Program-made: the position numbers and the translations under genes
Notes under the pieces: generated by a model
The model's input: the letters and a program-made list of their open reading frames with translations, nothing else
What the model was told of the DNA's origin: nothing
The model's database searches: none
Source of the DNA: Bacilli bacterium
GTDB lineage: Bacteria; Bacillota_I; Bacilli_A; RFN20; DUOF01
Length of the DNA: 64,000 nucleotides
Direction of reading: 5' to 3'
Assembly: GCA_045612885.1 (NCBI GenBank)
Contig: JAZKZZ010000015.1
Span: 5,431 to 69,430, forward strand
Part shown: piece by piece, positions 12,914-30,754 of the stretch
How the letters are laid out: every line of letters begins with the position of its first letter
Position numbering within the stretch: the stretch's first letter is position 1

Positions 12914-14689
12914 TTAATTCACTTTAATAATAATTTCTATTTTATTAGGTTCTAGCACGATTTCATTTTGTGTTTTTTCAGTTAATAGTGATTTATACGT
13001 TTTTCCATCGCTATAAACATATGTTTCATCGCTTACATTAGTAAGAATTACAATTTCTTCTTTATCATTTATTCTTTTATATACAATAATTCCATCACTT
13101 GACCTAATAAACTCTAATTTTCCTTCTTTAAATACTTTATGATTCCTAATATTAGCTAATTTTTTATACCAATTTAAGATATCTTTGTTTTCTTTTCCCC
13201 ATGGATAACATCTTCTAGAAAAATCAGGAGCATCCTCCTCAATTCCTACTTCATCACCATAAAATATACTTGGTATTCCATAGAACGTATACTGTAGTCC
13301 ACTTATAATTTTTAACTTATCTATATAATTATCTTTTTCTTTTAATATAGATAATATTCTCCTTGTATCATGACTACCAATTAAATTCATTAAATTATGT
13401 TTAACAAACTCAGGATAGTTGTTTTCTATCATTTGATAAACATAAAATAATTTATTGCAATCATTATCGTAAACATAACTAATAAGTGCATCTTTTAAAG
13501 GGTAATTCATAACACTATTTAACTCTTCGCCCAAAAAGTAACCTCTACGATTACTATAGGCAATTTTTGTAGAAGCATCTTCCCACACTTCACCTATAAT
13601 AAGTGCATCTTTTTTCACACTATAAACGCTAGCACAAATCTTAGTTAATAGCTCATGGTGAATTTCATCTACTACATCTAATCTAAATCCTAGCAACCCC
13701 ATATTCATATACTTAGTGATAATCATAGAAATATACTCTTGTAAATCTTTATTAGATTGATTAACACTAGGTAAAGTTTTTATTCCCCACCAAGAAGCAT
13801 AATCATCTGGCCAATTATTAAAATTAAACCAATCATAATATATAGATTCTTTAGAATTATATGCACCTACTACATCAAAATGATTATTCTTATTAAAGTA
13901 AATACTATCACTACCGATGTGATTAAATACACCATCTAAAACTATCCCTATTTTTCTTTCTTTAGCTTCATTAATTAACTCCTGTAATATTTCTTCATTT
14001 CCATACATTGGATCGATTTTTTCATAATTACTAGTATCATATTTATGATTACTTGGAGCCATAAAAATTGGTGATAAATAAATGATATTTACTCCAATAT
14101 TTTTTAAATAATCGAGTTTATCTATTACCCCTTTTAAATTACCACCAAAGACCTCATAATTTAATAAAGTTCTATCAGTAGTATTCTTAGTAATACTTCC
14201 TCCCCAATCATTTCTATAAACAAATCCATCACGAATATTCACTTTTCCAATTTTATTAAATCTATCGACAAAAATATGATAGATAATTCCACCTTTATAT
14301 AAAGACGAAATATCTCTTTCTCTTTTTATGACGGTAAGTGGAAATTCTTCATTACTAGTAAGACTAGCATCATATCTATTACTTTTATTAACATATAAAA
14401 TTCCATCATTAGTATCAACTTCAAAATGATACCAGTGTAATCCTATATCAGATAATTTAGTATTACATTCATATACAAAATAGTTAATCTCATAAGATGA
14501 TAAATTACACTCTAAAAATTGAGTATAATTATTTTTTTCATACCTTACTACTAACGTTACTTTATTAACTTTTGTATCACATCTTACTTTTATCTTAAAA
14601 TTAATGTTTTGATTTTTTTTAACTGGTCCTGTAGGAAATTTATCGATATTTGGATCAAATATAACCTTTTCCATAACTATAATTTCCAA
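12914..14689 (-). CDS. GH13 alpha-amylase-family enzyme (neopullulanase/cyclomaltodextrinase-like)
   Basis: GH13 regions I-IV: VDGVFNH, GFRLDVVDEI, GEVWE, LIGSHDTRR. An N-terminal N-domain is present. Confidence 0.85.
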   Translation of the reverse strand: MEIIVMEKVIFDPNIDKFPTGPVKKNQNINFKIKVRCDTKVNKVTLVVRYEKNNYTQFLECNLSSYEINYFVYECNTKLSDIGLHWYHFEVDTNDGILYVNKSNRYDASLTSNEEFPLTVIKRERDISSLYKGGIIYHIFVDRFNKIGKVNIRDGFVYRNDWGGSITKNTTDRTLLNYEVFGGNLKGVIDKLDYLKNIGVNIIYLSPIFMAPSNHKYDTSNYEKIDPMYGNEEILQELINEAKERKIGIVLDGVFNHIGSDSIYFNKNNHFDVVGAYNSKESIYYDWFNFNNWPDDYASWWGIKTLPSVNQSNKDLQEYISMIITKYMNMGLLGFRLDVVDEIHHELLTKICASVYSVKKDALIIGEVWEDASTKIAYSNRRGYFLGEELNSVMNYPLKDALISYVYDNDCNKLFYVYQMIENNYPEFVKHNLMNLIGSHDTRRILSILKEKDNYIDKLKIISGLQYTFYGIPSIFYGDEVGIEEDAPDFSRRCYPWGKENKDILNWYKKLANIRNHKVFKEGKLEFIRSSDGIIVYKRINDKEEIVILTNVSDETYVYSDGKTYKSLLTEKTQNEIVLEPNKIEIIIKVN

Positions 14690-17061
14690 ATCTTCTTAAC
14701 GTAATCTTTAATACTTCTATCACTTGAAAAATAATAATTTCTAGCAATACTTAATAAAGTTTTACGATACCATTCATCACCATTTCTATAAGTCATATCC
14801 ATTAATGCATCTGCTCTTATATAATCAGCAAAATCTGCTAAACACATATAAATATCTCTATGAGGAGTTTCTCCTAGTAAATATTGACTAATATCATGGA
14901 AAGATTCACCATTAAATCCATTATCTAGATAAGTAATAACTCTTCTTATTCTCTCATCACTATTGTAGTAATCCATTGGATGATATCCTTTTTCATCAAT
15001 CATAGCTTTTTCTTCTTTTGTTAAACCAAATGAGAATGAGTTATCAATTCCACACTTTTCCATAATTTCAATATTTGCACCATCAATAGTATCAATCATT
15101 AAGGCTCCATTAAAGATAGCTTTCATATTACCAGTACCACTAGCTTCTTTACCCACAAGTGATATTTGTTCACTTACATCCGTAGCAGGTGTCAATAACT
15201 CAGATACAGAAACTGAGAAGTTCTCCACGAATACAACTTTAATTTTCTTGTTAGCAATTGGATCATTCTCAATATGTTTAGCAAGTTGAGTCACCAATCT
15301 AATAATTCTCTTTGCCATATAATAACTACTAGCAGCTTTACCTGCAAAAATAAATGTTTGAGGCGTCATATCCCAATCAGGATTATTTCTTAATTCACTA
15401 TATAAATAAATGATTCTTAAAACATTTAATAATTGCCTTTTATATTCATGAATTCTTTTTGCCTGAACATCGATTCTAGCGTTAGGATCTATCTCAATAC
15501 CTTGAGTTTCTTTTAAATATTTAGCGAATCTTTTCTTATTTTCTAATTTAACTTTCTTTAGTTCTTCTAAAGTTTCACTTTCATGAGCAAATTTTTCTAA
15601 TTTTTTAAGCAAACTAGCATCAGTTAAATATTCTTTTCCTACTCTTTTACTAATAAATTTATCAAGTAATGGATTAGCTTCTGCAACCCATTTTCTATGT
15701 GAAACACCATTAGTAACATTTACAAATTTTTCAGGATAGATACTATAATAATTCTTTAATAAATCGTTCTTTAAAATATCTGTATGTATCTCACTAACTC
15801 CATTTACACTGTGACTTGCATAGACAGCTAAATTCGTCATATAAACTTTCCCATTAGAAAGAATTGCCATATTTTCCACTTTTGCACCATCAAACTTATA
15901 TTCATATTTAAGTTGATCTCTAAGTCGTCTATCTAACTCTCTTAAAATTAGAGCTATACGTGGCATATATTTTTCTACCAACCAATATGGTTGTACCTCT
16001 AATGACTCACTTAAAATAGTGTGATTAGTATAACTTATAGTTTCTCCTACCATTTTAAACGCTTCATCCCAAGATAAATAATATTCATCTAATAAAATTC
16101 TCATTAATTCTACTACCATAAACACAGGATGAGTATCATTTAAATGAACTGCCATATGTTTAGGAAGTGTTGAAATTCTATGTCCTCTTGCGATATGTTC
16201 TTTAATAATATTTTGAATAGCAGCACTTGCTAAAAAATACTCTTGTTTTAATCTTAAAGCCTTACCATACTCATTATCATCAGCAGGATACAAATAATCA
16301 TTAATTGCATTTATATCCCTAGCAATTTGCTCTTCTCTTAGTTTTTCTTCATCAGTTAAAACGCCAGTTTTATTAGAAAGATAATTAGCTTTCCATAAAC
16401 GTAAATATGCATTTCCTTCTAATTTATATCCAGTCATCACCAAATCACAAGGAATAGCCTCTACGCAAATAGGATTATTCAATTTGTAATGGTATGTGCC
16501 AAAATAATCCACATTTTCTTCTAATTCGCCACCAAAATACACTTTAACAGCTTTATCTTTCTTCTCATTTAGCCATACATGACCTTTATCCAACCATTGA
16601 TCTGCTTCTTCTTTTTGTTCTCCATCAACAATTTTTTGTTTAAATAAGCCATATCTATACAAAAGAGAATGTCCCATTGCACGGTAATTTAAAGTAGCCA
16701 ACGATTCTAGAAAACAGGCAGCAAGTCTACCTAAACCACCATTACCTAAACCCGCATCATTTTCTTGTTTAATAACATCTTTAAGATTCTTTTTGTGAGA
16801 TTTAAGTATTTTATCTACTTTACTATATTCTCCCATATTCCATAAGTTATTTTCTAAACAATTACCAATTAAAAATTCTATAGAAATATAGTTAATAGCT
16901 TTCTTTCCTCTATTGTTTGCAATTGTTTCATCTGATTTTTCCACAACTTCCTTACTAACAAGATAAGCCAAAACATCATGAATTTCTTCATTAGTAGCAG
17001 TATCTAAATTCTTATTAAAATCTTTCTTTAATTGCTTATTTAAGATTTCTTCATTAAGCAT
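14677..17061 (-). CDS. glgP: Glycogen/maltodextrin phosphorylase
   Basis: Pyridoxal-phosphate site GKEASGTGNMKAIFNGAL. 794 aa. 13-nt overlap with the amylase gene. Confidence 0.93.
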   Translation of the reverse strand: MLNEEILNKQLKKDFNKNLDTATNEEIHDVLAYLVSKEVVEKSDETIANNRGKKAINYISIEFLIGNCLENNLWNMGEYSKVDKILKSHKKNLKDVIKQENDAGLGNGGLGRLAACFLESLATLNYRAMGHSLLYRYGLFKQKIVDGEQKEEADQWLDKGHVWLNEKKDKAVKVYFGGELEENVDYFGTYHYKLNNPICVEAIPCDLVMTGYKLEGNAYLRLWKANYLSNKTGVLTDEEKLREEQIARDINAINDYLYPADDNEYGKALRLKQEYFLASAAIQNIIKEHIARGHRISTLPKHMAVHLNDTHPVFMVVELMRILLDEYYLSWDEAFKMVGETISYTNHTILSESLEVQPYWLVEKYMPRIALILRELDRRLRDQLKYEYKFDGAKVENMAILSNGKVYMTNLAVYASHSVNGVSEIHTDILKNDLLKNYYSIYPEKFVNVTNGVSHRKWVAEANPLLDKFISKRVGKEYLTDASLLKKLEKFAHESETLEELKKVKLENKKRFAKYLKETQGIEIDPNARIDVQAKRIHEYKRQLLNVLRIIYLYSELRNNPDWDMTPQTFIFAGKAASSYYMAKRIIRLVTQLAKHIENDPIANKKIKVVFVENFSVSVSELLTPATDVSEQISLVGKEASGTGNMKAIFNGALMIDTIDGANIEIMEKCGIDNSFSFGLTKEEKAMIDEKGYHPMDYYNSDERIRRVITYLDNGFNGESFHDISQYLLGETPHRDIYMCLADFADYIRADALMDMTYRNGDEWYRKTLLSIARNYYFSSDRSIKDYVKKIWKL

Positions 17062-18580: not shown

Positions 18581-18640
18581 ATAGTTTTATTTTATTATAA
18601 ATAATAAAAACTAACCATGATTTAGCTCTCTTTTATCGAC

Positions 18641-18665
18641 AAAAAAAGTGCTTTTATTAAAGCAC
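18641..18665 (-). terminator. Rho-independent terminator ending the three-gene unit, upstream of glgA
   Basis: gtgcttt-tatt-aaagcac hairpin, followed by a T-run on the minus strand. Confidence 0.65.
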
Positions 18666-18666
18666 C

Positions 18667-19386
18667 TTACTTTCTTGTATTAATATTTTTGCTATTTTTA
18701 TTTAGAATATTTAAAATTGCATCTTTTAGCATTTTAACATTTGGATAAAAATCCTCATCATAATCGTTATCTAAATCTTCATATGGAAAAACTAAAATTG
18801 TTTTAAGTAATATTTCTTGTGGAATGGTAATAATGCCTGACTTTTCCCCAAAAATTGTATTTTTACTAATGCATATATCATTATGCGTAAAATTATCAAT
18901 TAATTTACTACCATCAGAAAGAATCACATCAACGTTCATTTTAAACGAAGGGAGTCTAAAATCATAAATTATATTTTTTGTTTTAATATCATACCCACGA
19001 ATGCACATATCATCAAGTTGATTTTTTCTATATTTCTTTTTTATTTTTTCAAAAGCCTCTGCTTTTTCTTCATTTTCATTTAATGAAACAATGAAAAAAC
19101 CACCTAACAACACTTCAGATTTAATATTAACATCGTTATTAATCATTTCTAATTCTTCTATTAATTCCTCTACACTAACTTTAATCATTTTATTAGAAAA
19201 TATTCTTGAATATTCATTGTTTAATAATTCATTTATATTTTTTATTTCTTCGTTATATTTCTCTTTTATTTGATTTAATTCTTCACAAAGTTTAATACGC
19301 TTTTCTTTTAATTCTTGTATTTTTATTAAAATCTCATTTAACTCTTTATCCACAATATCACTTTCTTTCAATATTTTGACTATCAA
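18667..19386 (-). CDS. Hypothetical protein, 239 aa. Coiled-coil N-terminus and an unknown C-terminal domain.
   Basis: Third gene of a tight three-gene unit. 29-nt overlap with the preceding ORF. Confidence 0.6.
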   Translation of the reverse strand: MIVKILKESDIVDKELNEILIKIQELKEKRIKLCEELNQIKEKYNEEIKNINELLNNEYSRIFSNKMIKVSVEELIEELEMINNDVNIKSEVLLGGFFIVSLNENEEKAEAFEKIKKKYRKNQLDDMCIRGYDIKTKNIIYDFRLPSFKMNVDVILSDGSKLIDNFTHNDICISKNTIFGEKSGIITIPQEILLKTILVFPYEDLDNDYDEDFYPNVKMLKDAILNILNKNSKNINTRK

Positions 19387-19840
19387 GATGCTTTTTACAA
19401 TTATTTATTGCATTCTCAATCTTTAAAAAATATTCTTTATATTCATTTCTTAAATCTTCTAATTTGCTTAGTAATCTGTTTTCCCTTAAAATAAAATCCT
19501 CTTTTTCTCTAACTAAAGTTTCATTGCACCAATCAAGCATTTTTTGAGCATTTTCTTCCTTATTATCAAAATTGTTTAAAACATATTCCATCCATTTATC
19601 TGATAAAATAAAACTCATTCTTCCAGATATTGAATGAATATAAAACTCACATAAAGAATATTGCACATAGCAAGGTCCTCTAAAGTTATTTCCTTCAAGT
19701 CTCACCTTACTTCCACTTATAAACTCTTCATTATCTTCAACTAAAATTAATCCTGAACCCTTATACACGTTTTCATCCCAACTATATCCATTTTCTAATA
19801 AAAATTTCTTTATATCGCTATTTTTAACTCTAAACCCCAT
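19358..19840 (-). CDS. Hypothetical protein, 160 aa
   Basis: Middle gene of the unit. Its start lies 3 nt after the upstream stop. Confidence 0.6.
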   Translation of the reverse strand: MGFRVKNSDIKKFLLENGYSWDENVYKGSGLILVEDNEEFISGSKVRLEGNNFRGPCYVQYSLCEFYIHSISGRMSFILSDKWMEYVLNNFDNKEENAQKMLDWCNETLVREKEDFILRENRLLSKLEDLRNEYKEYFLKIENAINNCKKHLDSQNIERK

Positions 19841-19842
19841 AG

Positions 19843-20625
19843 TTATTTCCTCCTATAAATGTCTTTATTGTTGATTTCTTTATATTGTCTAGTAGCTAAT
19901 TTTTCCAGTATTCTTATTGCCGCCTTTTTATACTTGTGTTCAGCATTAAATAATAAGATTGATTTAGCAAATGTGAACGCCAATACTTCATCTTTTTCTA
20001 CTAGAACATTAATATTTTTAAATCCATATTTTTTTGTCTCATTAAGAAGATTTTTTATTATTTTTGCATTCATATCTCTTAAATGTTTTTTTGATTCTTT
20101 ACTATCTTTTTCACTATATTCTAGAATGATATCTATATATTCTTGATATATTTCATTTGCATCTTCATACACTATATAATCATTTTCACGTTCAGCTTTT
20201 TTAAAGATACCATTAAGAAGAATTTTATATTCTTTAACTAAATTAATATCGTTAAGCATCTCTCTTGCCATCATTGCTCTAGCAGTATAATGTGACAAAC
20301 CTTCTTCACCTGGTATATGCACTTCATCTATATATCTAGATATTTTTTCTAATTTTTCTATATCACTTTGAGAAATATCTTCATATCTTATTTTCGCAAA
20401 CAAATCATCATATGTATTAAACTTCAAATTCTTAACTTGATTATCAATTATAATATTTTCTCCAGCATACATAAATAAATACCAGTTTTGGATTGCATGT
20501 ATTTCACCTTTTTCTGCTAATAGTTTCAAGTTTTCTAACATACTGTCTGTATATCCATCAAGCAAATATTTACACCAACAAGTAATAAAATCACTGTATA
20601 AGTTAGAAATTTTTCCTCTAGTCAT
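19843..20625 (-). CDS. Hypothetical protein, 260 aa
   Basis: First gene of the unit. Preceded by a TTGAAA-17-TAAAAT promoter-like sequence at 20650-20678. Confidence 0.6.
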   Translation of the reverse strand: MTRGKISNLYSDFITCWCKYLLDGYTDSMLENLKLLAEKGEIHAIQNWYLFMYAGENIIIDNQVKNLKFNTYDDLFAKIRYEDISQSDIEKLEKISRYIDEVHIPGEEGLSHYTARAMMAREMLNDINLVKEYKILLNGIFKKAERENDYIVYEDANEIYQEYIDIILEYSEKDSKESKKHLRDMNAKIIKNLLNETKKYGFKNINVLVEKDEVLAFTFAKSILLFNAEHKYKKAAIRILEKLATRQYKEINNKDIYRRK

Positions 20626-20649
20626 ACACTCACATCCATTCTCGCCTAC

Positions 20650-20678
20650 ATTTTATCATTGTAAATGAGGATTTTCAA
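20650..20678 (-). promoter_or_regulatory. Sigma-A-type promoter for the three-gene unit
   Basis: Minus-strand TTGAAA, 17-nt spacer, then TAAAAT, about 30 nt upstream of the ATG. Confidence 0.45.
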
Positions 20679-20777
20679 TGATTTTTTTAAGCCCTAAAAG
20701 GTCATAAAAAGAAAAAAACTCACTACCAATCTATATAATAGATTTTCATAAGTTTTTATCTAAATTTGTTATAAGTT

Positions 20778-22634
20778 TTAAATCTTCTTTATTAATAATC
20801 CTTGATTAGGTTTTAAATTAATCTTGATAGAATATTTTTTGCCATGCATATTCGCACTGGTAGTATTAATAAATTCATTATCATCATTACCCTCACCACC
20901 ATATTTTTTAGCATTAGAATCTAATATTACTTCATACTTTCCTTGTTTATTAACACCTAATTCATAATTATCTATACTTGCTGGCGCAAAATTAAACAAG
21001 CAAATAAGTTCTTCTCCCTTATGATTCTTTCTAATAAAGGCAATGACATTATTTTTAGTATCAACATTTAACCATTCAAATCCATTCCAAGAGAAATCTT
21101 CTTCATATAGACAAGTATTTTCCCTATATGTCCAGTTTAAATCGTGAACAAATTGTTTCATTTTGTTATGTTTTTCATACTCTAACAAGCAAAAATCAAT
21201 TCCTTCTTTATATGCCCATTCTTTAAATTGCGCAAATTCTGTTCCCATAAAAGTTAGCTTTTTCCCAGGATGTGCAAACATATATAACAAGAACACTCTC
21301 ATTGCATCAAATTTTTGTTCGTAACTACCAAACATTTTATTTAATAAAGAACACTTACCATGAACTACTTCATCATGTGATATTGGTAAAATAAAATTTT
21401 CACTGAAAGCATAATAAAATGAAAATGTTAATTTATTCATATGATGATGTCTAAAAAATGGATCTATTTTGACATATTCTAAACAGTCATTCATCCATCC
21501 CATATTCCATTTGTAATTGAACCCTAAACCTCCAATTTCAATTGGTTTAGTAACCATTGGCCAAGCAGTTGATTCCTCTGCTATCATAAGTGCATAAGGG
21601 TGTTCATTAAATATTGCACTGTTTAACTTTTTAAAGAATGCAATAGCCTCTAAATTCTTGTTTTCTCCATAAGTATTTTTATCCCATTCTCCATCTTTTC
21701 TATCGTAATCAAGATATAGCATACTCGCTACTGCATCAACTCTTATTCCATCTATATGATATTTATCAAATAACATATTAGCACTACTTACTAAGAAACT
21801 TTGTACTTCAGTTTTTCCATAGTTAAATATCCTTGTTCCCCATCCTTTATGTTCCATTCTTTTAGGATTAGGATCTTCATAAACATATCCACCATCAAAC
21901 TCTATTAAACCAAAACTGTCTTTAGCAAAGTGAGCTGGAACCCAGTCCATAATTACGCTAATATTCGCTTGGTGACACTTGTCTACAAAATACATGAAAT
22001 CATGAGGTGTTCCAAATCTACTTGTAATTGCAAAATACCCTGTTGCTTGATATCCCCACGAACCATCAAATGGGAATTCATATAAAGGCATAAGTTCAAT
22101 ATGTGTGTATCCCATCTCTTGAACATAAGGAATTAATTCATCTGCCATTGTTTTATATGAATAGTAATTGCCATCATTATGCTTCTTCCAACTAGCTAAA
22201 TTTATTTCGTATATATTCATTGGACTATTATAATGATTTCTTTTGTTTCTACTTTCTACATATACTCCATCATTCCACTCATATCCTTCAAGAGAATAGA
22301 CCTTACTTGCATCATCCCCATTAGTTTGACTATGAAACGAATATGGATCTGCTTTATTTATCACTTTTCCTCTTTTTGTAGTAATCGCATATTTATAACA
22401 ATCATACACTTTAGCATTATCAACGTACACCTCATATATACCTTGAGATATTTTTTTCATTACATGTGCATTTTTATCCCAATTATTAAAGTCTCCTACT
22501 ACACTAACACTTCTAGCATTAGGAGCATAAACTCTAAACACAAATCCATTACCTTCTTTGTGAGCGCCTAGAAACTCATAACTATGATAATATGTCCCCT
22601 GATGAAATAAATAACTCTTTTCCTCAGTTTTCAT
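20778..22634 (-). CDS. glgB: 1,4-alpha-glucan branching enzyme (GH13)
   Basis: N-terminal CBM48. GH13 catalytic regions GIRVDAV and IAEEST. 618 aa. Confidence 0.9.
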   Translation of the reverse strand: MKTEEKSYLFHQGTYYHSYEFLGAHKEGNGFVFRVYAPNARSVSVVGDFNNWDKNAHVMKKISQGIYEVYVDNAKVYDCYKYAITTKRGKVINKADPYSFHSQTNGDDASKVYSLEGYEWNDGVYVESRNKRNHYNSPMNIYEINLASWKKHNDGNYYSYKTMADELIPYVQEMGYTHIELMPLYEFPFDGSWGYQATGYFAITSRFGTPHDFMYFVDKCHQANISVIMDWVPAHFAKDSFGLIEFDGGYVYEDPNPKRMEHKGWGTRIFNYGKTEVQSFLVSSANMLFDKYHIDGIRVDAVASMLYLDYDRKDGEWDKNTYGENKNLEAIAFFKKLNSAIFNEHPYALMIAEESTAWPMVTKPIEIGGLGFNYKWNMGWMNDCLEYVKIDPFFRHHHMNKLTFSFYYAFSENFILPISHDEVVHGKCSLLNKMFGSYEQKFDAMRVFLLYMFAHPGKKLTFMGTEFAQFKEWAYKEGIDFCLLEYEKHNKMKQFVHDLNWTYRENTCLYEEDFSWNGFEWLNVDTKNNVIAFIRKNHKGEELICLFNFAPASIDNYELGVNKQGKYEVILDSNAKKYGGEGNDDNEFINTTSANMHGKKYSIKINLKPNQGLLIKKI

Positions 22635-24075
22635 CTTTACTCCTCCTACTAGTTACTACTAATTCATTTAAAAATTCAATATTAGTTTGATCATATAACT
22701 TTTTATTACTAGAATATGACCAATTTCCTCCAATAATTCCTGGAGTATTAAATCTATATTCATTTCCTTCGTTTAATAAATCTTGTGGATTAATAATAAT
22801 AACATTGCTATTAGATTCATATAACTTTTTGATTGATTCTCTAATAACTAAAATATTATCACTATTTTCATCTATGTTTAAATATTCACATACTTTAGCT
22901 TTATTTTCTTCATCTTCTAAAAAAGAAGGGAAAGTATCATTATCATGAGTACCTGTATATGCAATACAATTTTCATTATAATTGTGAGGTAAAAAAGGAC
23001 TATTTTCTTCACCAAAAGCAAATTGATAAACCTTCATTCCAGGATAGTTACTATATTCTTTTAATCTAATTACACCTTCACTTATAATACCTAAATCTTC
23101 AAGGATAAGATTATTAATATTATTTTCTTTTAGCAAATCAATAAATGTATATCCTGGCCCTTCCTTCCACTCTCCAACTTTTCCATCTTCACATCCAAAT
23201 GGAATTGTATAGTAATATTCTAAACCTCTAAAATGATCTATTTTTAAATAATCATAAACATTCAATAAATATTTATATTTATTAAGTAAGTATTCATAAC
23301 CATTTTCTTTTATATAATCATAATTATAAATAAGAGTATTCCACACTTGACCAGTGGTCGAAAAATAATCCGGTGGAACACCTGCTACTAATGTAGGAGT
23401 GAAATTTTCATCTAGTAAATACATCTCACTATCTGCCCAAGCCTCTTTACTATCCATTGCACTATTGCAAGGAGAATCTCCAATAATAAATATTCCTTTG
23501 CTATTAGCATATCCCTTTAGTTTAAACCATTGAAAAAAGAATAAGTATTGAGTAAATATATAAAAATTAACTCTATCTTTTTTCTTAGATAAATATTTTT
23601 TACATTCCTCTGATTCCCTATTTTTTAACTCTTTAGGAAACAATCTCAATTCTTTATATTCCTCTAATAAAGTCATAAATTCACCATAAGGAATAACCCA
23701 GTCATTTTCTTTAATAAACTCTCTTATTTGTCTAGAAAAATCAATACCTTTATATACATCATATAAATATTTCATTTTCAACTTTTTATACTCTTGATAA
23801 GTTAATTTTTTATTTTCTTCAATCATTCTATATTCAGATAAACTTACATATCCTTTTAAATCAATAAATAAAGGGTTTCCAGAATTAATACATGTCGAAG
23901 AAAATGGTGATGCATATACATCAACATCATTTATAGGTAAAACTTGCCAGTAAATTTGTCCACTTTTAGCTAAAAAATCCACAAATTCATACGCTTCTTT
24001 ACCCATAGTTCCAAATTTAGACTTGTTTGGCAATGAGAATATTGGCATTAATATCCCTGCTCCTCTTTTCATCAT
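22624..24075 (-). CDS. malQ: 4-alpha-glucanotransferase (amylomaltase, GH77)
   Basis: GH77-type sequence and size (483 aa). Overlaps the glgB start region. Confidence 0.8.
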   Translation of the reverse strand: MMKRGAGILMPIFSLPNKSKFGTMGKEAYEFVDFLAKSGQIYWQVLPINDVDVYASPFSSTCINSGNPLFIDLKGYVSLSEYRMIEENKKLTYQEYKKLKMKYLYDVYKGIDFSRQIREFIKENDWVIPYGEFMTLLEEYKELRLFPKELKNRESEECKKYLSKKKDRVNFYIFTQYLFFFQWFKLKGYANSKGIFIIGDSPCNSAMDSKEAWADSEMYLLDENFTPTLVAGVPPDYFSTTGQVWNTLIYNYDYIKENGYEYLLNKYKYLLNVYDYLKIDHFRGLEYYYTIPFGCEDGKVGEWKEGPGYTFIDLLKENNINNLILEDLGIISEGVIRLKEYSNYPGMKVYQFAFGEENSPFLPHNYNENCIAYTGTHDNDTFPSFLEDEENKAKVCEYLNIDENSDNILVIRESIKKLYESNSNVIIINPQDLLNEGNEYRFNTPGIIGGNWSYSSNKKLYDQTNIEFLNELVVTSRRSKDEN

Positions 24076-25031
24076 TTCACCCCTTTATAATTTTTATAGA
24101 AATTAAAATAAAAACTACTATCTACTTCTTTTAATATTTGTTTAATCCCTAAAGATACGGCACCATAAACTGTCTTTTTATTTGTTACATTCACTAAGTA
24201 TTTATCTCCTATATATTTTTTAAATAAATCCACAATAAATTCATTGTTTTCAAATATCCCACCAAATAAATAAACTTCAACAGTACCACTGATATCCTTA
24301 GTTTTACTAATTACTATACTAGATAAATTTTCTAATCGCTTATTTACTATATTTTTAGCTACTTTATCATCTTTTTTATATGCTTCTATAACAAGTTTAG
24401 ACAAAGAGGCAACCCCTTTTATTCCTTCATTATAAATTTGAGCCATACTATACCATAATGAATGTCCATAGTGTTCTTCTAATAAATTCACTAGAATCGT
24501 ATCTTCCTTTACTCCATTTATCGCTCCACTACTAGCTATTAGGGCATCTTTTCCTAAATCAAATCCACAAAAATAATCATCAGGAAGATATCCCCAACCT
24601 CCAACGTGACTGAATTCATTATTTTTCTTTATAGCCATATTAAATCCAGTTCCAGATATTATAACTACTCCATTATTCTTATTTCCTAAACTGGCTTCTT
24701 TTACACTAGCCAAGTCGCCTTCTACTACTATATTTTCAAATTTCAAACTTGATTGAAGTTTTTCTTTTAATATCGTTTTAGAATCACCAAATTCAATGCC
24801 TGCAATTGCTAAAAGTACACATTCTACTTCCAAATTTTCATCATTGGCAATTGTTAACATGTCCTTTAGAGCATTATTTAGAGTAGAAAATGAATTTTCC
24901 ATTCCAACATCATTAGGATTAGTACAATTAACAATTTTGTGAGCAAAAATATTTCCTAATGTATCCACTAGAACCAACTCTGTTTTACTACCTCCACCAT
25001 CAACTGCAATAAATCCTTTCATGTTATTCAC
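24072..25031 (-). CDS. BadF/BadG/BcrA/BcrD-type ATPase (GlcNAc-kinase-like sugar kinase; probable glucokinase in this context)
   Basis: IAVDGGGSKTELVL phosphate-1 motif. ASKHA fold. Confidence 0.65.
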   Translation of the reverse strand: MNNMKGFIAVDGGGSKTELVLVDTLGNIFAHKIVNCTNPNDVGMENSFSTLNNALKDMLTIANDENLEVECVLLAIAGIEFGDSKTILKEKLQSSLKFENIVVEGDLASVKEASLGNKNNGVVIISGTGFNMAIKKNNEFSHVGGWGYLPDDYFCGFDLGKDALIASSGAINGVKEDTILVNLLEEHYGHSLWYSMAQIYNEGIKGVASLSKLVIEAYKKDDKVAKNIVNKRLENLSSIVISKTKDISGTVEVYLFGGIFENNEFIVDLFKKYIGDKYLVNVTNKKTVYGAVSLGIKQILKEVDSSFYFNFYKNYKGVK

Positions 25032-26403
25032 CTACTTCTTTTAATAATTTGTTAATCAAAGTATCCATTTCAAGACGAATAACTCTCAAGTTTTCTTCAC
25101 TATTAGCCTCATATCTAATAGTCAAATTAGGTCCCGTATTAGAAAATCTAACAAGTGCCCAGCCATTATCAAACTCAATTCTTATTCCATCCATTTCAAA
25201 TGAATTATAACCCTTGCTATGAGAATACTCTTTAACTTTCTCTACAACTCTTCTTTTTCCTTGTTCTCCTGCTTTAACTTCATAATATACTGAATAGTAA
25301 ACATTAACTGTATTTAATAATTCACTGACTTTGGTACCAGTATTTACTAACATTTCCACAAATCTACAACCAGCATAGATTCCATCATCAAATCCAGCCC
25401 ATCTATCTCTATAAAATACATGTCCAGAATATTCTCCACCGAGTGAAAAATTATCTTCTTTCATTTTCTTATTTAAATATGAATTTCCTGTTCTATACAT
25501 TACGCCATTTATATTTTTCTCATTTAATCCATCAATCAATGCTTTAGAACATTTAACATCATATAAGACTTTATTTTCATTTAAAGCATCTTTTAAATAT
25601 CTAGCCATAAATAACAAATATAAATCTGCTTGTACATACTCTCCTTTTTCACTAACTATAGCTACTCTATCTCCATCACCATCAATACCAATACCTAAAT
25701 CATAACCTAATTCCACTACTTTATTTTTCAAATCAATCAAATTGCTTTCAACTGATGGATCTGCATCATGATTAGGGAAAGTTCCATCACTCTCACAATA
25801 AAGAAGATAGTACTCGATTCCTAATCTATCTAAAACGTCTTTGATAATTATAGAGCCAACACCATTACCACAATCTACTACAACTTTGATATCTTTATGT
25901 TTTAAATTAATAGAGTTAGCAAAGTAATCTAAATAGCTTTCTTTTATATCAAAATAGGTATATGTTCCCTCTCCCATTTTATGTTTTTTTTCTACACAAA
26001 ACTTATAAAAATCTTGAATGTATGGTCCATAGGCATTTCCTATCTCATTAAACGAGATTTTAAAACCATTATATTCTTTAGGGTTATGACTTGCTGTAAC
26101 CATAATACCTGCATATAATTTCAAAGAATATCTAGCAAAATAGAACATTGGAGTAGTAACTTCACCAAGATCAACCACACCGCATCCAGTACTAGTAATC
26201 CCCTTAATTAAAGCACTAGCAAATAAAGGAGATTCTTTACGGTTATCATGACCTATAACAACCATATGAATTCCTAAATCTTGTACATAGCTACCATAAT
26301 TTACTCCTAAAGTATAAGCAACGTCTTCATCAATAAGTTCTCCTACTATACCTCTTAAATCATATTCTCTAAATAAAACTGGATTTAAATCAACTATTTT
26401 CAT
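25024..26403 (-). CDS. Phosphoglucomutase/phosphomannomutase (alpha-D-phosphohexomutase)
   Basis: Active-site Ser motif TASHNP. Metal loop DGDGDR. 459 aa. Confidence 0.85.
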   Translation of the reverse strand: MKIVDLNPVLFREYDLRGIVGELIDEDVAYTLGVNYGSYVQDLGIHMVVIGHDNRKESPLFASALIKGITSTGCGVVDLGEVTTPMFYFARYSLKLYAGIMVTASHNPKEYNGFKISFNEIGNAYGPYIQDFYKFCVEKKHKMGEGTYTYFDIKESYLDYFANSINLKHKDIKVVVDCGNGVGSIIIKDVLDRLGIEYYLLYCESDGTFPNHDADPSVESNLIDLKNKVVELGYDLGIGIDGDGDRVAIVSEKGEYVQADLYLLFMARYLKDALNENKVLYDVKCSKALIDGLNEKNINGVMYRTGNSYLNKKMKEDNFSLGGEYSGHVFYRDRWAGFDDGIYAGCRFVEMLVNTGTKVSELLNTVNVYYSVYYEVKAGEQGKRRVVEKVKEYSHSKGYNSFEMDGIRIEFDNGWALVRFSNTGPNLTIRYEANSEENLRVIRLEMDTLINKLLKEVGE

Positions 26404-27611
26404 TATTTTACCTCCAAAGCATCATGTAATAAGTTTTTATATTCACTAACTCCTGGTTGATCAAAAGGATTAACATCTAATAAATATCCACCAACAGCAG
26501 CAGCAACTTCAAAAAAATAAATTAAACTACCAACATTCTCTTCATTAAGTTTATCAAGTTTAAACATCAATGATGGAGTATGACCATTAAAGTGAGCTTT
26601 AGCCACTCTATCACTAGCTACTAAATTAATCTCATTTAAATCTTGCTTATACTTATCAAGTTTAACCTTAATATTATCTTCAACAACAATTACAGACTCA
26701 AATAATATTGGATTTCCTTCTTGTAAGAATTGTCCTAAAGAATGTAAATCTCTACTATTCACAAGAGAAACAGGGAAAATACCTAAGTTATTTTTACCTT
26801 GAGTTTCTCCATACAATTGTTTTAGCCATTCACTAAAGTAATAAAGTTTTGGCTCATAAACTGTATAAGATTCTACTAGTTTCCCTTTTCTGTATAAAAT
26901 ATCTCTAATACAAGCATATTCGAATGCTTCATTTAAATAATTCTTACCTTTTTTAGCGCCTTTTAATAATTTAGAAGCAGAAATTCCTGCTACCTCGATT
27001 GGAAGTAATCCCACAGGTGATAATACTGAATATCTACCACCAATTTTATCTGGAACAGTAAAAGTAGTATACCCCTCACTATCTGCAAGTTTTTTTAATT
27101 CTCCCTTTTCTTTATCTGTTGTCACTATAATTCTTTCTTTTAATTCTTCTTTACTATATTTTTTATTCATAAGTTTTAAAATTAAATCAAAAGCAATTGC
27201 AGGTTCTAAAGTAGTACCACTTTTACTTACTACATTCACATAAACATTTTTGTCTTTGATATATTCTAATAGTTCACTAGTATAGGTACTTGATAAATTA
27301 TATCCAGCATAAAGAATTTCTATTTTTTCCTTTTTAAAATAACTAGAGAACATATCTATAACAGCTTTAGCTCCTAAATAAGATCCTCCGATTCCAACAA
27401 CCACTAAAACATCAGCATCATTTCTTATTTTCTTAGCTACTTTTTTTAGTCTTTTTAACTCTTCTTCACTAATACAAGTCTCGACATCATACCAATCTAA
27501 CATATCTTCTTTATTTTCTAATATCGGTTTAATATTTTCTATTTTTTCTTTATATGTTACTTTCTCGCTTTCTAAATCTTCTATATATGTTTTAAAATCA
27601 AATTTTAACAT
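26403..27611 (-). CDS. pgi: Glucose-6-phosphate isomerase
   Basis: SIS-domain motifs VVVGIGGSYLGAKAV and later PGI signature regions. 402 aa. Confidence 0.85.
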   Translation of the reverse strand: MLKFDFKTYIEDLESEKVTYKEKIENIKPILENKEDMLDWYDVETCISEEELKRLKKVAKKIRNDADVLVVVGIGGSYLGAKAVIDMFSSYFKKEKIEILYAGYNLSSTYTSELLEYIKDKNVYVNVVSKSGTTLEPAIAFDLILKLMNKKYSKEELKERIIVTTDKEKGELKKLADSEGYTTFTVPDKIGGRYSVLSPVGLLPIEVAGISASKLLKGAKKGKNYLNEAFEYACIRDILYRKGKLVESYTVYEPKLYYFSEWLKQLYGETQGKNNLGIFPVSLVNSRDLHSLGQFLQEGNPILFESVIVVEDNIKVKLDKYKQDLNEINLVASDRVAKAHFNGHTPSLMFKLDKLNEENVGSLIYFFEVAAAVGGYLLDVNPFDQPGVSEYKNLLHDALEVK

Positions 27612-27708: not shown

Positions 27709-28509
27709 CTATTTATTTTTTAAATCTTCATCAATAAGTTCTGCAAAACTCTCTACTTCTAATACATCCTTTGTATCATCTATATCAAGAGTTAAGAAAT
27801 CTAATCCTTTTGGATAATTTATGGTTAACTCTTTTGGATAGTTTACTACTAACTTAGAATTGAAATTAGCAGCAACACATCTCATTTCTGTTATAAGATA
27901 ATTTGAAGACACGTCATATTCCCACACTAATTCATCTTCTGTAAATGTTAAAGTATATGTATTGTCTGCATTTTTTACATATGTTGCCTTTTCTTTTAAA
28001 TTTTCGAAATTAAATCCTTCTAATTTATTTTCCATAACAATAGAAGAAAAATTTTCTCTATCATAAGTAGCATTTAATCTTTCCAATGTATCTTTAGCCT
28101 CTACAACAACATTTTTAATATCATCCTTTAGGATTACATTTGCACCGTTATGAGGATATATAATATATAATTTTTGATTTTTAGCATAGATATCGACATT
28201 CTTATCATTAAGCTTTGCTTTAGCTGATAAATCCCAATCAATTTTTTTATCTTTAGTTAAAGCGTTATATTCAATAACATAAGTTCCTTTAGTGTTAGTT
28301 AAAGTATATGTTCCACTAACAGCATTAACTTTCTTCATCATTGTTTCCACATTGCTAACTAATGAATTGATATCACCAACAGCAGCCAAACCAGTAGAAT
28401 CTAAGTTATTTGAAGCGCTTCTATTAAACACTTTAGAAAAACATCCAGAAAAAGAAAAACACATGACCAAACAAGTTAAAATTCTAATAACTTTTTTCAT
28501 CGCTTTCAC
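27709..28509 (-). CDS. Putative lipoprotein of unknown function
   Basis: Signal peptide with an FSGC lipobox (..MCFSFSGCFS). Confidence 0.6.
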   Translation of the reverse strand: MKAMKKVIRILTCLVMCFSFSGCFSKVFNRSASNNLDSTGLAAVGDINSLVSNVETMMKKVNAVSGTYTLTNTKGTYVIEYNALTKDKKIDWDLSAKAKLNDKNVDIYAKNQKLYIIYPHNGANVILKDDIKNVVVEAKDTLERLNATYDRENFSSIVMENKLEGFNFENLKEKATYVKNADNTYTLTFTEDELVWEYDVSSNYLITEMRCVAANFNSKLVVNYPKELTINYPKGLDFLTLDIDDTKDVLEVESFAELIDEDLKNK

Positions 28510-28990: not shown

Positions 28991-29011
28991 AACTGTTTTT
29001 TACAAACAGTT
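28991..29011 (-). terminator. Terminator hairpin overlapping the stop of the 584-aa gene
   Basis: aactgttt-tttac-aaacagtt, followed by a T-run on the minus strand. Confidence 0.55.
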
Positions 29012-30754
29012 CTTTTTGTTAATTATGTTATCTTTATTTATCGTTTCTTTCAAAAGTTTACTTTCTTTCCTTATGTTTTCTATTAATTCTTCTCTACTTA
29101 TATTAAGTTTAGAAATTATTCCTTTTGACATACTGTCACTAAAAGAATATTTATATGCTATTTTTAAATAAGGATTATCATGAATTTTTTCATATACGTC
29201 AATAATTTGATTTCTATCCATATCTAAGAATTCTTCAACACTACACTCAAATACATAAATATAGAAGGCTAAAGCATATTGCGTTAAGCATTGCACTCCT
29301 GATTTAGTTAATTTATTGTGCATTTTTATTTTTTCTTGTCTTAAATACATATTTAAAGGAATCTTATTAACATTTACTACTCTTGCTATTTCTCCTTTGC
29401 TTATTCCTTTTACCATCGCAGTATAAAAAACTCCTTTATCTTTGATACTATTTCGTATCTTATCATCTTCTTCTTTTTCTTCTTTTATATTTTCAAATAT
29501 TCCTTGCTCTGATAAGATCAATTTAACCAAATCCAAATTATAGGTAATTGTATGCGATTTAACTTCGCCATTACTAAGCAGTTCTTTAACTGTCCTTTTA
29601 TTAACAAAAAATTCAATAAAATAAGGAGAATTATTAATTATTTCAACAAGCATATTTCTTATTTTACCTTCTTGCAGATTCAGAATAGATTTATCTAAAT
29701 TTAATCTTTTTAAAAATCTAAATAAAACTTCATCAACAATCACATCACTAATGATAGTATCCGTTTTTTCAACGTTATAATTTTTGAGTTTATTTTTTAC
29801 TCTTTCTACTTCATTTTTAAATAAATTAATAGATTCCTCTTGAAATTTAGACATAACAAAAGTACTTTTTCCCCTATAATTGGTATCAATACACATCTTC
29901 TTTATGATTTTATTAGATTTCATCTCTTCATAAATAAATTTTATTTTTTCTTCGCTTATATTTACAATATCATCAACCGAACAGTCAAAAACGCTCAAAT
30001 AAAATTTCAATCCTCTTTTGGATAATCTGTTTACACCCTTACTTGCTAAAATTTCTATCAGTCTATGTCTTTCAGCACTTGTTTTAATACTAATGTGATT
30101 ATAATCAACATTAATAACATGTGCAATTTGTTCTGCGCTATAACCATAAATATACATAGCACCTAAAACACCATATTTAGTTATTTTATATCTAAGATCT
30201 TTATTATCTTCTAGTGAACTGCTTTCAATATCATATATACCTTTTTCCGCTAATTTAATTTTCACTTTTGCCCATTGTTCATATGTTTTTAATGATATTG
30301 CTTGTGTTGTCATATTTCCTTCACTTGCTTTTACACTTAACTTTGTTTGTCTTATAAATCTTTCTAATAATAAAGGATCATTATTAATTTCTTTTAATAG
30401 TGTTGATCTATATGCGGCATTATATTGATTAAGTACCTTTTCCAATGCTAAGGATTTTTTATTATCTTTAATACCTCGAGCATATTTAAAAAATGAATCT
30501 TCCAATTTGTTATAAATTAGCTCTAAATAGTCTTCTTTGTATTTAGCAATCTGATAAATATCTTCTCCAAAAAAATCAGTGATAATCTCTTGTACGATAT
30601 CATTATCAAGTTGATAACTATATTTATCAAATATCTTAGAAATAAGTTTATAGATAACTTTTACTTCTCTTTCCCCAAAGATATACTTTCTATCCAAAAT
30701 TGCATCTCTATTGCTTGTTATAATTTCATCTAATCTAGGTTGCTTAATATTCAT
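29000..30754 (-). CDS. Hypothetical 584-aa protein with two diverged copies of an HTH-like module
   Basis: The internal repeat GYSAEQIAHVINV...KGVNRL...FYLSVFDCSVDDI aligns with GISKGEIARVVNV...SGVQCL...FYIYVFECSVEEF. Confidence 0.6.
   Translation of the reverse strand: MNIKQPRLDEIITSNRDAILDRKYIFGEREVKVIYKLISKIFDKYSYQLDNDIVQEIITDFFGEDIYQIAKYKEDYLELIYNKLEDSFFKYARGIKDNKKSLALEKVLNQYNAAYRSTLLKEINNDPLLLERFIRQTKLSVKASEGNMTTQAISLKTYEQWAKVKIKLAEKGIYDIESSSLEDNKDLRYKITKYGVLGAMYIYGYSAEQIAHVINVDYNHISIKTSAERHRLIEILASKGVNRLSKRGLKFYLSVFDCSVDDIVNISEEKIKFIYEEMKSNKIIKKMCIDTNYRGKSTFVMSKFQEESINLFKNEVERVKNKLKNYNVEKTDTIISDVIVDEVLFRFLKRLNLDKSILNLQEGKIRNMLVEIINNSPYFIEFFVNKRTVKELLSNGEVKSHTITYNLDLVKLILSEQGIFENIKEEKEEDDKIRNSIKDKGVFYTAMVKGISKGEIARVVNVNKIPLNMYLRQEKIKMHNKLTKSGVQCLTQYALAFYIYVFECSVEEFLDMDRNQIIDVYEKIHDNPYLKIAYKYSFSDSMSKGIISKLNISREELIENIRKESKLLKETINKDNIINKKNCL

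Follow-up and report, generated by a model that had tools for sequence, protein, structure and literature searches.

Glycogen operons of Firmicutes usually carry glgC and glgD between glgB and glgA. What does it mean when this gap holds three small genes that resemble neither? We address this question for a 64,000-nucleotide (nt) stretch of contig JAZKZZ010000015.1 from a Bacilli bacterium (hereafter the window), in which genes A, B and C separate glgB from glgA. We propose that positions 18645-20678 are an insulated three-gene operon: an accessory cassette restricted to this lineage, here in reduced form, which occupies the space between glgB and glgA in an operon without glgCD and whose products would be non-catalytic and probably of a conflict or immunity type. 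Taken as a whole, this proposal is about an even bet. We are highly confident in its anatomical and evolutionary description of the cassette; that the products specifically form a conflict- or immunity-type binding module is put forward more tentatively, with slightly less than even expectation.

Genes and signals of the cassette

The cassette and the two genes that delimit it are laid out as follows, in the direction of transcription.

20778-22634, minus strand: glgB, branching enzyme (Pfam CBM_48, Alpha-amylase and GlgB_N), upstream boundary of the variable slot
20705-20761, minus strand: AT-rich hairpin with a U-run just past the glgB stop codon, -15.5 kcal/mol, z = -2.5, tentative
20650-20678, minus strand: sigma-70-type promoter of the cassette, hexamers TTGAAA and TAAAAT spaced by 17 nt, extended -10 (TGnTAAAAT), scoring 10/12 in the consensus scan
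19843-20625, minus strand: gene A, open reading frame (ORF) of 260 amino acids (aa)
19358-19840, minus strand: gene B, ORF of 160 aa
18667-19353, minus strand: gene C, ORF of 228 aa from GTG 19353 (alternative start TTG 19386, giving 239 aa)
18645-18668, minus strand: intrinsic terminator closing the cassette, overlapping the C stop codon, 64 nt upstream of the glgA start codon
17072-18580, minus strand: glgA, glycogen synthase of glycosyltransferase family 5 (GT5; Pfam Glyco_transf_5, 2.6e-78), downstream boundary of the variable slot

Among 5.8 billion proteins, word-indexed searches returned only the window protein itself and a few metagenome proteins of ~40% identity. The contigs of these homologues (L001-L010) belong to a sister organism with the same glycogen operon. 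A, B and C are real genes: they are longer than expected by chance, the longest stop-free run in the shuffled region averaging 80 codons with a maximum of 170 over 500 shuffles, and all three are open in this second lineage as well. Two nucleotides separate A from B, and the perfect AGGAGG ribosome-binding site of B sits within the 3' end of A. The original prediction for this locus, made from the sequence by itself, had described tightly packed ORFs of 260, 160 and 239 aa with a 29-nt overlap of B and C. The position of the trio, the lengths of A and B and their close abutment stand. The overlap requires that C start at TTG 19386 and disappears with the start at GTG 19353, 4 nt past the B stop codon, which is the start in the homologues and in NCBI's own gene call (P0004, 228 aa); C is for this reason taken as a non-overlapping gene of 228 aa.

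A match to the promoter consensus means little by itself, since promoter-like sites show no excess in this AT-rich DNA, with 95 detected and 115 expected. More telling is that the sister contigs L006, L007 and L008 have the same two hexamers and the same extended -10, and the sister lineage the same 5' leader, in surroundings that are ~70% identical. The ribosome-binding sites of the cassette are also conserved in the sister lineage. At the other end, the terminator is one of six found by the terminator scan against 2.3 expected; its fold reaches -12.9 kcal/mol (z = -3.5), and its stem is kept in L007 with an altered loop. The hairpin behind glgB was not called by the same scan and is partly conserved in the sister lineage. 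It may be a weak terminator insulating the cassette from glgB read-through. As far as can be read from the DNA, A-B-C is a self-contained transcription unit with its own conserved promoter and terminator, and on these three points (the TTGAAA-17-TAAAAT promoter, the terminator before glgA and the autonomy of the unit) the original prediction was sound.

The variable slot and its evolution

Between glgB and glgA, the sister contigs L006-L010 carry a longer cassette in which counterparts of the window genes (A', B' and C') are accompanied by two others. In order, it consists of:

A', 256 aa
B', 154 aa
an ankyrin-repeat protein, 188 aa
a 906-aa protein (7692-10412 in L006), without a Pfam domain
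C', 228 aa

Profile scans of these five genes were significant only for the ankyrin repeats, for which PADLOC gives only an ankyrin-type match to PDC-M72A. A divergently oriented LysR-family gene lies between C' and glgA in L006, L009 and L010; it is absent from L007 and from the window. The sister spacer between glgB and A' also holds a 61-aa ORF (937-1122 in L001, ~5510-5700 in L006) that is a remnant of HepT, of the HEPN ribonuclease toxin family (PF01934, E = 1.2e-11). It covers the C-terminal profile positions 69-120 of 120, and a search for a complete HepT/MntA toxin-antitoxin system, with the HEPN RX4-6H motif and a cognate MntA, gave this 61-aa fragment only, in the sister spacer only. 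The window has no ankyrin gene, 906-aa gene, LysR gene or HepT remnant. Its gene C begins where the ankyrin gene begins in the sister lineage, and such a shared start point would fit either a deletion in the window lineage or an insertion in the sister lineage.

Hypothetical proteins of Microcystis phages match residues 628-806 of the 906-aa protein at ~25% identity, with the shared motifs CC..G.G..C, SW.W and D..E (phage reference L103, 1585-3678, which is ORF68L of Microcystis phage MaMV-DC). This region may represent an undescribed domain common to phages and the sister cassette, without a Pfam model. A Cys-His-Asp triad of papain/transglutaminase type, considered for the same protein, was dropped because the His is Gln in the phage homologue.

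Beyond the sister organism, the best GlgA match among the species representatives of GTDB comes from a Clostridia metagenome-assembled genome (MAG) from sheep rectum, at 55% identity. The two closest loci, L011 (GlgA 55% identity) and L012 (50%), share the order malQ-glgB-glgA-glgP-amy, with no glgCD. In L011, nothing lies between glgB and glgA. The corresponding gap of L012 (CALWJZ010000006.1, 5770-9585, an uncultured Clostridia MAG) is filled by glgA itself, whose ORF of 1271 aa has an N-terminal extension of ~800 aa fused to the GT5 domain, of low complexity and rich in acidic residues, Lys, Ser and Asn. The slot thus qualifies as a variable islet: three genes in the window, five in the sister, none in L011, a GlgA extension in L012, with or without LysR, and with a HepT remnant in the sister. 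The original prediction had raised the prospect that the same triplet occurs at this position clade-wide, which is so in part: both known lineages of a narrow clade carry the cassette there.

One further contig touches the cassette. L005, a 653-bp contig of the European Nucleotide Archive (ENA) with a coverage of 1.4, is ~99.8% identical to window positions 18950-19433 (covering the 3' end of B and codons 1-140 of C), and the similarity breaks off sharply on either side. Either the assembly is chimeric here or the contig stems from a strain whose cassette is rearranged.

The comparison of window and sister reveals a sharp contrast between the cassette and its surroundings. Flanking proteins are 89-96% identical (GlgB 92%, GlgA 96%), against 39% for A, 44% for B and 42% for C. 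At the DNA level, blocks of 84-89% identity reach precisely to the glgB stop codon (20778) and begin again at 18634, immediately beyond the terminator. The synonymous divergence (dS) of A, B and C is 0.79-1.23, that of the glycogen genes 0.42-0.93; among codons for identical amino acids, the fraction that differs is 0.27-0.38 in the cassette versus 0.19-0.29 in the glycogen genes. The ratio of nonsynonymous to synonymous divergence (dN/dS) is 0.43-0.56 for A, B and C and 0.04-0.08 for the glycogen genes, with dN about ten times higher in the cassette. Since dS is similar in cassette and flanks, the genes are orthologous and vertically inherited, and their proteins have changed about ten-fold faster while staying in place.

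The original prediction had also suggested an accessory cassette that landed in the operon. A recent landing is unsupported, since dS is like that of the flanks, the GC content is similar (0.245, against 0.277 for the window), no meaningful insertion scars or flanking repeats were found around the cassette, and the slot holds no integrase, transposase or other mobility gene. Of the signs of horizontal acquisition that were considered (composition shift, excess dS, mobility genes and repeats), the cassette displays none. No relatives of A, B or C were found in IMG/VR, and searches of plasmids for relatives of A and of the 906-aa protein were negative as well. An origin of the cassette in a phage or a plasmid is likewise unsupported, the sole weak match being that of the 906-aa protein to a Microcystis phage hypothetical protein.

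The two lineages have not changed equally. In Tajima's relative-rate test with family outgroups, window A shows 43 lineage-specific changes against 19-21 in A' (chi-square 7-9), and it has lost 22 family-consensus residues against 8 in A', those of the MLEY..F..LD N-terminus among them. The roughly two-fold excess of changes and the lost residues would fit a decaying relic, that is, of a lineage that lost the ankyrin and 906-aa genes and in which A-C were left under relaxed selection with little or no function. Such a history would also accommodate the three genes here against five in the sister, the start of C at the ankyrin start position, and the dN/dS of 0.43-0.56. Against decay speak three intact ORFs in DNA of 25% GC, where shuffled sequence averages 80 stop-free codons, a dN/dS below 1 and the presence of conserved blocks, and the conservation of promoter hexamers, ribosome-binding sites and terminator stem. 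Without a cassette-bearing outgroup, moreover, the gain of two genes in the sister is as likely as their loss here. We consider the relic unlikely.

Variation between sister strains adds a finer scale. The flanks (dS 0-0.03), A' and B' are nearly identical between strains, and the 906-aa gene and C' reach a dS of about 0.06 (~0.04-0.075), with a dN/dS of ~0.1 for the 906-aa gene. This peak of strain-level diversity suggests recombination in the 3' half of the islet.

The glgC/glgD position and the glycogen pathway

Could the cassette stand in for the genes usually found at its position? For comparison we used 80 Clostridia loci around GlgA relatives, taken from GTDB species representatives, in which the glg genes were mapped. 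In 67 of them, glgB is followed by a GlgC-like ORF, a gap of ~1.1 kb at the glgD position, and glgA. The published Firmicute order glgBCDAP agrees with this glgB-glgC-(glgD)-glgA arrangement (PMC10395257). The original prediction was therefore right to expect glgC and glgD between glgB and glgA in most operons; its further step, that the trio sits where these genes should be, is not supported. L011, L012 and also L077, where glgA comes directly after glgB, all have the malQ-glgB-glgA-glgP-amy type of operon without glgCD, and in L011 the gap is empty. Because an operon type without glgCD exists that has no cassette either, the trio is no stand-in for glgCD.

A stricter version of the same idea would make A-C highly diverged GlgC and GlgD, the subunits of ADP-glucose pyrophosphorylase. 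All that speaks for it is location, the cassette occupying the same glgB-glgA gap, on the same strand, as GlgC and GlgD in the glgBCDAP operon. The likeness extends neither to sequence or motifs nor to length or fold. As the original prediction had stated, A-C lack the GGxGxRL motif and any recognised domain. A regular-expression search for GGxGx[RK]L and GxG[ST]R found these glycine-rich motifs in none of A, B and C and in no other ORF of the 64-kb window, apart from one spurious match inside GlgB. No NTP_transferase match was obtained for A, B or C in Pfam or NCBIfam, even at E<=1, and the rest of the 64 kb likewise contains no nucleotidyltransferase profile and no other sugar-nucleotidyltransferase motif. 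GlgC and GlgD are ~370-430 aa long, compared with 260, 160 and 228 aa here; A is predicted to be all-helical, and C to combine a long helix with a small alpha/beta domain without a PDB match. The 134 relatives of A described below include none that adjoins glycogen genes, and the gap can be empty in the nearest operons without glgCD. This identity is ruled out as far as sequence and fold evidence reaches, and we give it next to no weight.

The operon still has to supply GlgA with a substrate. In the sister contigs L006-L009, no gene is annotated as a nucleotidyltransferase. The donor of GlgA in this clade may depend on a glgC elsewhere, on uridine diphosphate glucose (UDP-glucose) or on a MalQ-based route. 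It is in this setting that a glycogen-linked module might be imagined: without catalysis of its own, it would scaffold or regulate GlgA or the storage granule, or hold their primer, where the clade's operon has no GlgC/GlgD control point. The cassette does lie between glgB and glgA, on the same strand and in both known lineages, across a dS of ~1. No glgC-type motif occurs in the 64-kb window or the sister contigs, and the extension of ~800 aa fused to GlgA in L012 indicates that the clade innovates at this junction. Yet the gap is empty in L011, the closest operon without glgCD; A-family genes in six other contexts never adjoin glycogen genes; and the 80 Clostridia glycogen loci contain no relative of A, B or C. 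The ten-fold higher dN/dS than that of the glycogen enzymes, and a promoter and terminator that uncouple the cassette from the glg genes, point the same way. Literature searches for bacterial glycogen-granule scaffold proteins found nothing. We judge a glycogen-linked module quite unlikely. That A-C are dedicated to glycogen, in scaffolding, priming or regulating GlgA or the granule in a clade of low-GC Clostridia without GlgC/GlgD, appears very improbable, every comparison made here arguing against it.

Among the candidates offered by the original prediction, an accessory or defence-like cassette is the better fit, ahead of a role in glycogen metabolism, because homologues of A never adjoin glycogen genes and the content of the slot varies; the defence part of that suggestion finds no match in any known defence family. 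The accessory cassette that we favour would sit in the operon and not serve glycogen synthesis.

The remaining genes of the glycogen cluster lie on either side of the slot, all on the same strand:

26403-27611, minus strand: pgi
25024-26403, minus strand: pgm
24072-25031, minus strand: BadF-type (BadF/BcrAD) sugar kinase, inside the glycogen operon
22624-24075, minus strand: malQ
14677-17061, minus strand: glgP
12914-14689, minus strand: alpha-amylase-family gene

Other features of this cluster deserve mention. The BadF-type kinase and its orthologue in the sister share 72% identity (dN/dS 0.28), where other operon genes are 89-96% identical. The GlgA of the window has a short Lys-rich N-terminal extension of ~30 aa. 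Just upstream of pgi lie two ORFs without a Pfam match, at 27709-28509 (minus strand, 266 aa) and 29000-30754 (minus strand, 584 aa).

Protein families, function and known systems

All three cassette proteins of the window are soluble and slightly acidic, with no recognisable catalytic domain, signal peptide or membrane segment, and none has a significant match in Pfam, NCBIfam, PADLOC or PHROGs. PADLOC-DB v2 gave nothing for A or C; the best matches of B, to Csx1 and Csm3 (E = 0.006-0.03), run over its coiled-coil tail and do not identify a defence protein. Sequence searches of the PDB, with single sequences and with profiles of A (45 sequences), B and C, produced only weak matches, to designed helical repeats and coiled coils of the GCN4 type. 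Missing annotation is not remarkable by itself, since unannotated genes are common in such uncultured low-GC lineages and two more occur nearby.

Protein A has the widest distribution of the three. A profile of A and A' found, among 1.84 billion cluster representatives, 134 at E<=1e-3 and 63 at E<=1e-10 (representatives P0012-P0143). Members are mostly 250-300 aa long and align end to end, from residue 1 to ~250. They share an N-terminal conserved block, MLEYxFxxLDxDFITxWS...LAELGQINAIQxWYLF, followed by a variable helical body and a conserved pair of C-terminal helices. The window protein retains the DFITCW and LAEKG..AIQNWYLF blocks and has lost the MLEY start (MLEY..F..LD). Forty-five members were searched against Pfam and NCBIfam without a match. 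A belongs to an undescribed helical family. The structure model of A is all-helical and of low confidence, with a predicted local distance difference test (pLDDT) score of 54.

In this respect A recalls the adaptors built from Sel1-like repeats (SLR) or tetratricopeptide repeats (TPR). It shares with them the all-helical prediction and, in its most conserved segment, the motif A-E-x-G-x-x-x-A-I-Q-x-W-Y (the N-terminal Sel1-like motif of A reads LAEKGEIHAIQNWYLF), and the A profile weakly matches designed helical-repeat proteins of the PDB. Unlike these proteins, A shows one motif only, read by eye, in a model of low confidence. Neither the Sel1 (PF08238) nor the TPR profile matched window A at E<=1 or any of the 45 family members at E<=0.01, and A is not assigned to these families.

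Elsewhere, the gene for A is solitary in five of six other genomic contexts and never adjoins glycogen genes. These contexts, together with a short contig, are:

L098: flanked by a methionine gamma-lyase-family gene on one side, the sigF operon on the other
L099: preceded by ftsA, ftsZ and an ABC transporter and followed by a gene read by eye as that of a DinB-like (Y-family) DNA polymerase
L102: near ruvX and polA
L104: before scpA and scpB
L106: between ku/ligD and an epimerase gene
L092 (10884-17099): P0147, then genes for AAA (490 aa), DUF7192 (297 aa), AAA (492 aa), AAA_5 (255 aa) and unknown (481 aa) proteins
L091: a short contig, among small unannotated genes

The AAA/DUF7192 cluster of L092 is inserted between housekeeping genes, and PADLOC detects in it only generic AAA similarity. 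None of these contexts contains B or C; the small adjoining genes are unrelated to either according to hhalign. A scan of metagenomes with the A profile yielded only four loci.

Proteins B and C are less informative. B comprises an N-terminal domain of ~100 aa and a C-terminal heptad-like helix at 114-150, without family or PDB match. C begins with a helix spanning residues 2-54 in the model (its first 40 residues at pLDDT 85-93) and continues as an alpha/beta domain closed off by a C-terminal helix. Only one of five models of C is confident, and fold searches with C returned nothing significant. The heptad-like stretches of B (114-150) and C (1-35) agree with the two coiled-coil ORFs of the original prediction.

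How might such proteins work? A-C could form a non-enzymatic binding complex, with A as a putative Sel1-like helical adaptor and with the C-terminal coiled-coil helix of B predicted to pair with the N-terminal helix of C, thereby joining the two. A high dN in genes that keep their ORFs and signals suggests that the partner changes as well, and the complex might bind or neutralise this fast-changing partner. In the five-gene form, the counterparts of A-C would act together with the ankyrin and 906-aa proteins. The ankyrin protein, the phage-like domain of the 906-aa protein, the HepT remnant, the patchy LysR gene and the peak of strain diversity together suggest a module of conflict or immunity, or of some niche-specific function.

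The same observations could be pressed further, into a complete undescribed anti-phage defence or toxin-antitoxin-like module with a cryptic effector among A-C. The site is variable and resembles a hotspot, with a HepT remnant in the sister and LysR in only some contigs. The proteins evolve fast, the 3' half of the sister cassette shows recombination-like divergence between strains, the 906-aa protein has a domain in common with Microcystis phage proteins, and in L092 a homologue of A adjoins AAA-family ATPases and a DUF7192 protein. This bolder proposal is weakened by the lack of PADLOC matches, by the lack of any recognisable nuclease, ATPase, NAD-ase or membrane effector in A-C, by vertical inheritance without mobility genes, and by homologues of A that are mostly solitary among core genes. 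We rate it as improbable, and assign most of the remaining probability to some other cellular role of A-C.

Several points also weigh against the conflict- or immunity-type binding module that we prefer. No known defence, toxin or immunity family matches A, B or C, the window version has no enzyme or effector, and there is neither a sign of horizontal transfer nor a phage or plasmid relative. A-family genes stand mostly alone among housekeeping genes, which an ordinary cellular role fits equally well. The cassette has been kept in the operon, on the same strand, across a dS of ~1, which leaves some probability to a glycogen-linked role. The models are weak (pLDDT 54 for A, one confident model of five for C), the proposed pairing of B and C is a predicted one, and the high dN/dS could reflect low constraint on coiled-coil and helical proteins.

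If the proposed accessory cassette is real, an operon of core metabolism can carry, in an intergenic gap, a long-lived, insulated and fast-evolving accessory cassette. A tempting inference is also corrected, in that a gene at the position of glgCD is not thereby a substitute for glgCD. Three protein families without annotation come to light; A merits consideration as a new family description, since it covers more than 130 sequence clusters across low-GC Firmicutes and has no Pfam model. The practical value would stay modest as long as no role in conflict, in immunity or in the handling of glycogen is shown.

Among known systems, the closest parallel in layout is with the core defence hotspots of Pseudomonas aeruginosa, which are variable islets between conserved core genes (PMC10250203). 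Like them, the cassette has conserved flanks and a changing content of zero, three or five genes, with or without LysR and a HepT remnant, and divergence is raised inside the islet both between species and between strains. Unlike them, it is vertically inherited, with a dS like that of its flanks and no integrase or repeats; its cargo includes no known defence family; and it lies inside a metabolic operon, not between unrelated core genes.

A second parallel is with polymorphic toxin-immunity cassettes, some of which encode immunity proteins of the ankyrin or SLR type. The cassette proteins are likewise small, fast-evolving, non-catalytic and of repeat type, the sister ankyrin protein adjoins a large protein with a distinct C-terminal domain, and the scattered solitary homologues of A resemble orphan immunity genes. 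The parallel stops at the 906-aa protein, which has no recognisable trafficking domain (LXG, RHS or WXG-linked) or toxin domain, at the neighbourhood, which has no secretion genes, and at the window itself, which has no large protein. Variable islets between conserved genes are familiar as a type of feature, and the cassette between glgB and glgA is an unusual variant of it.

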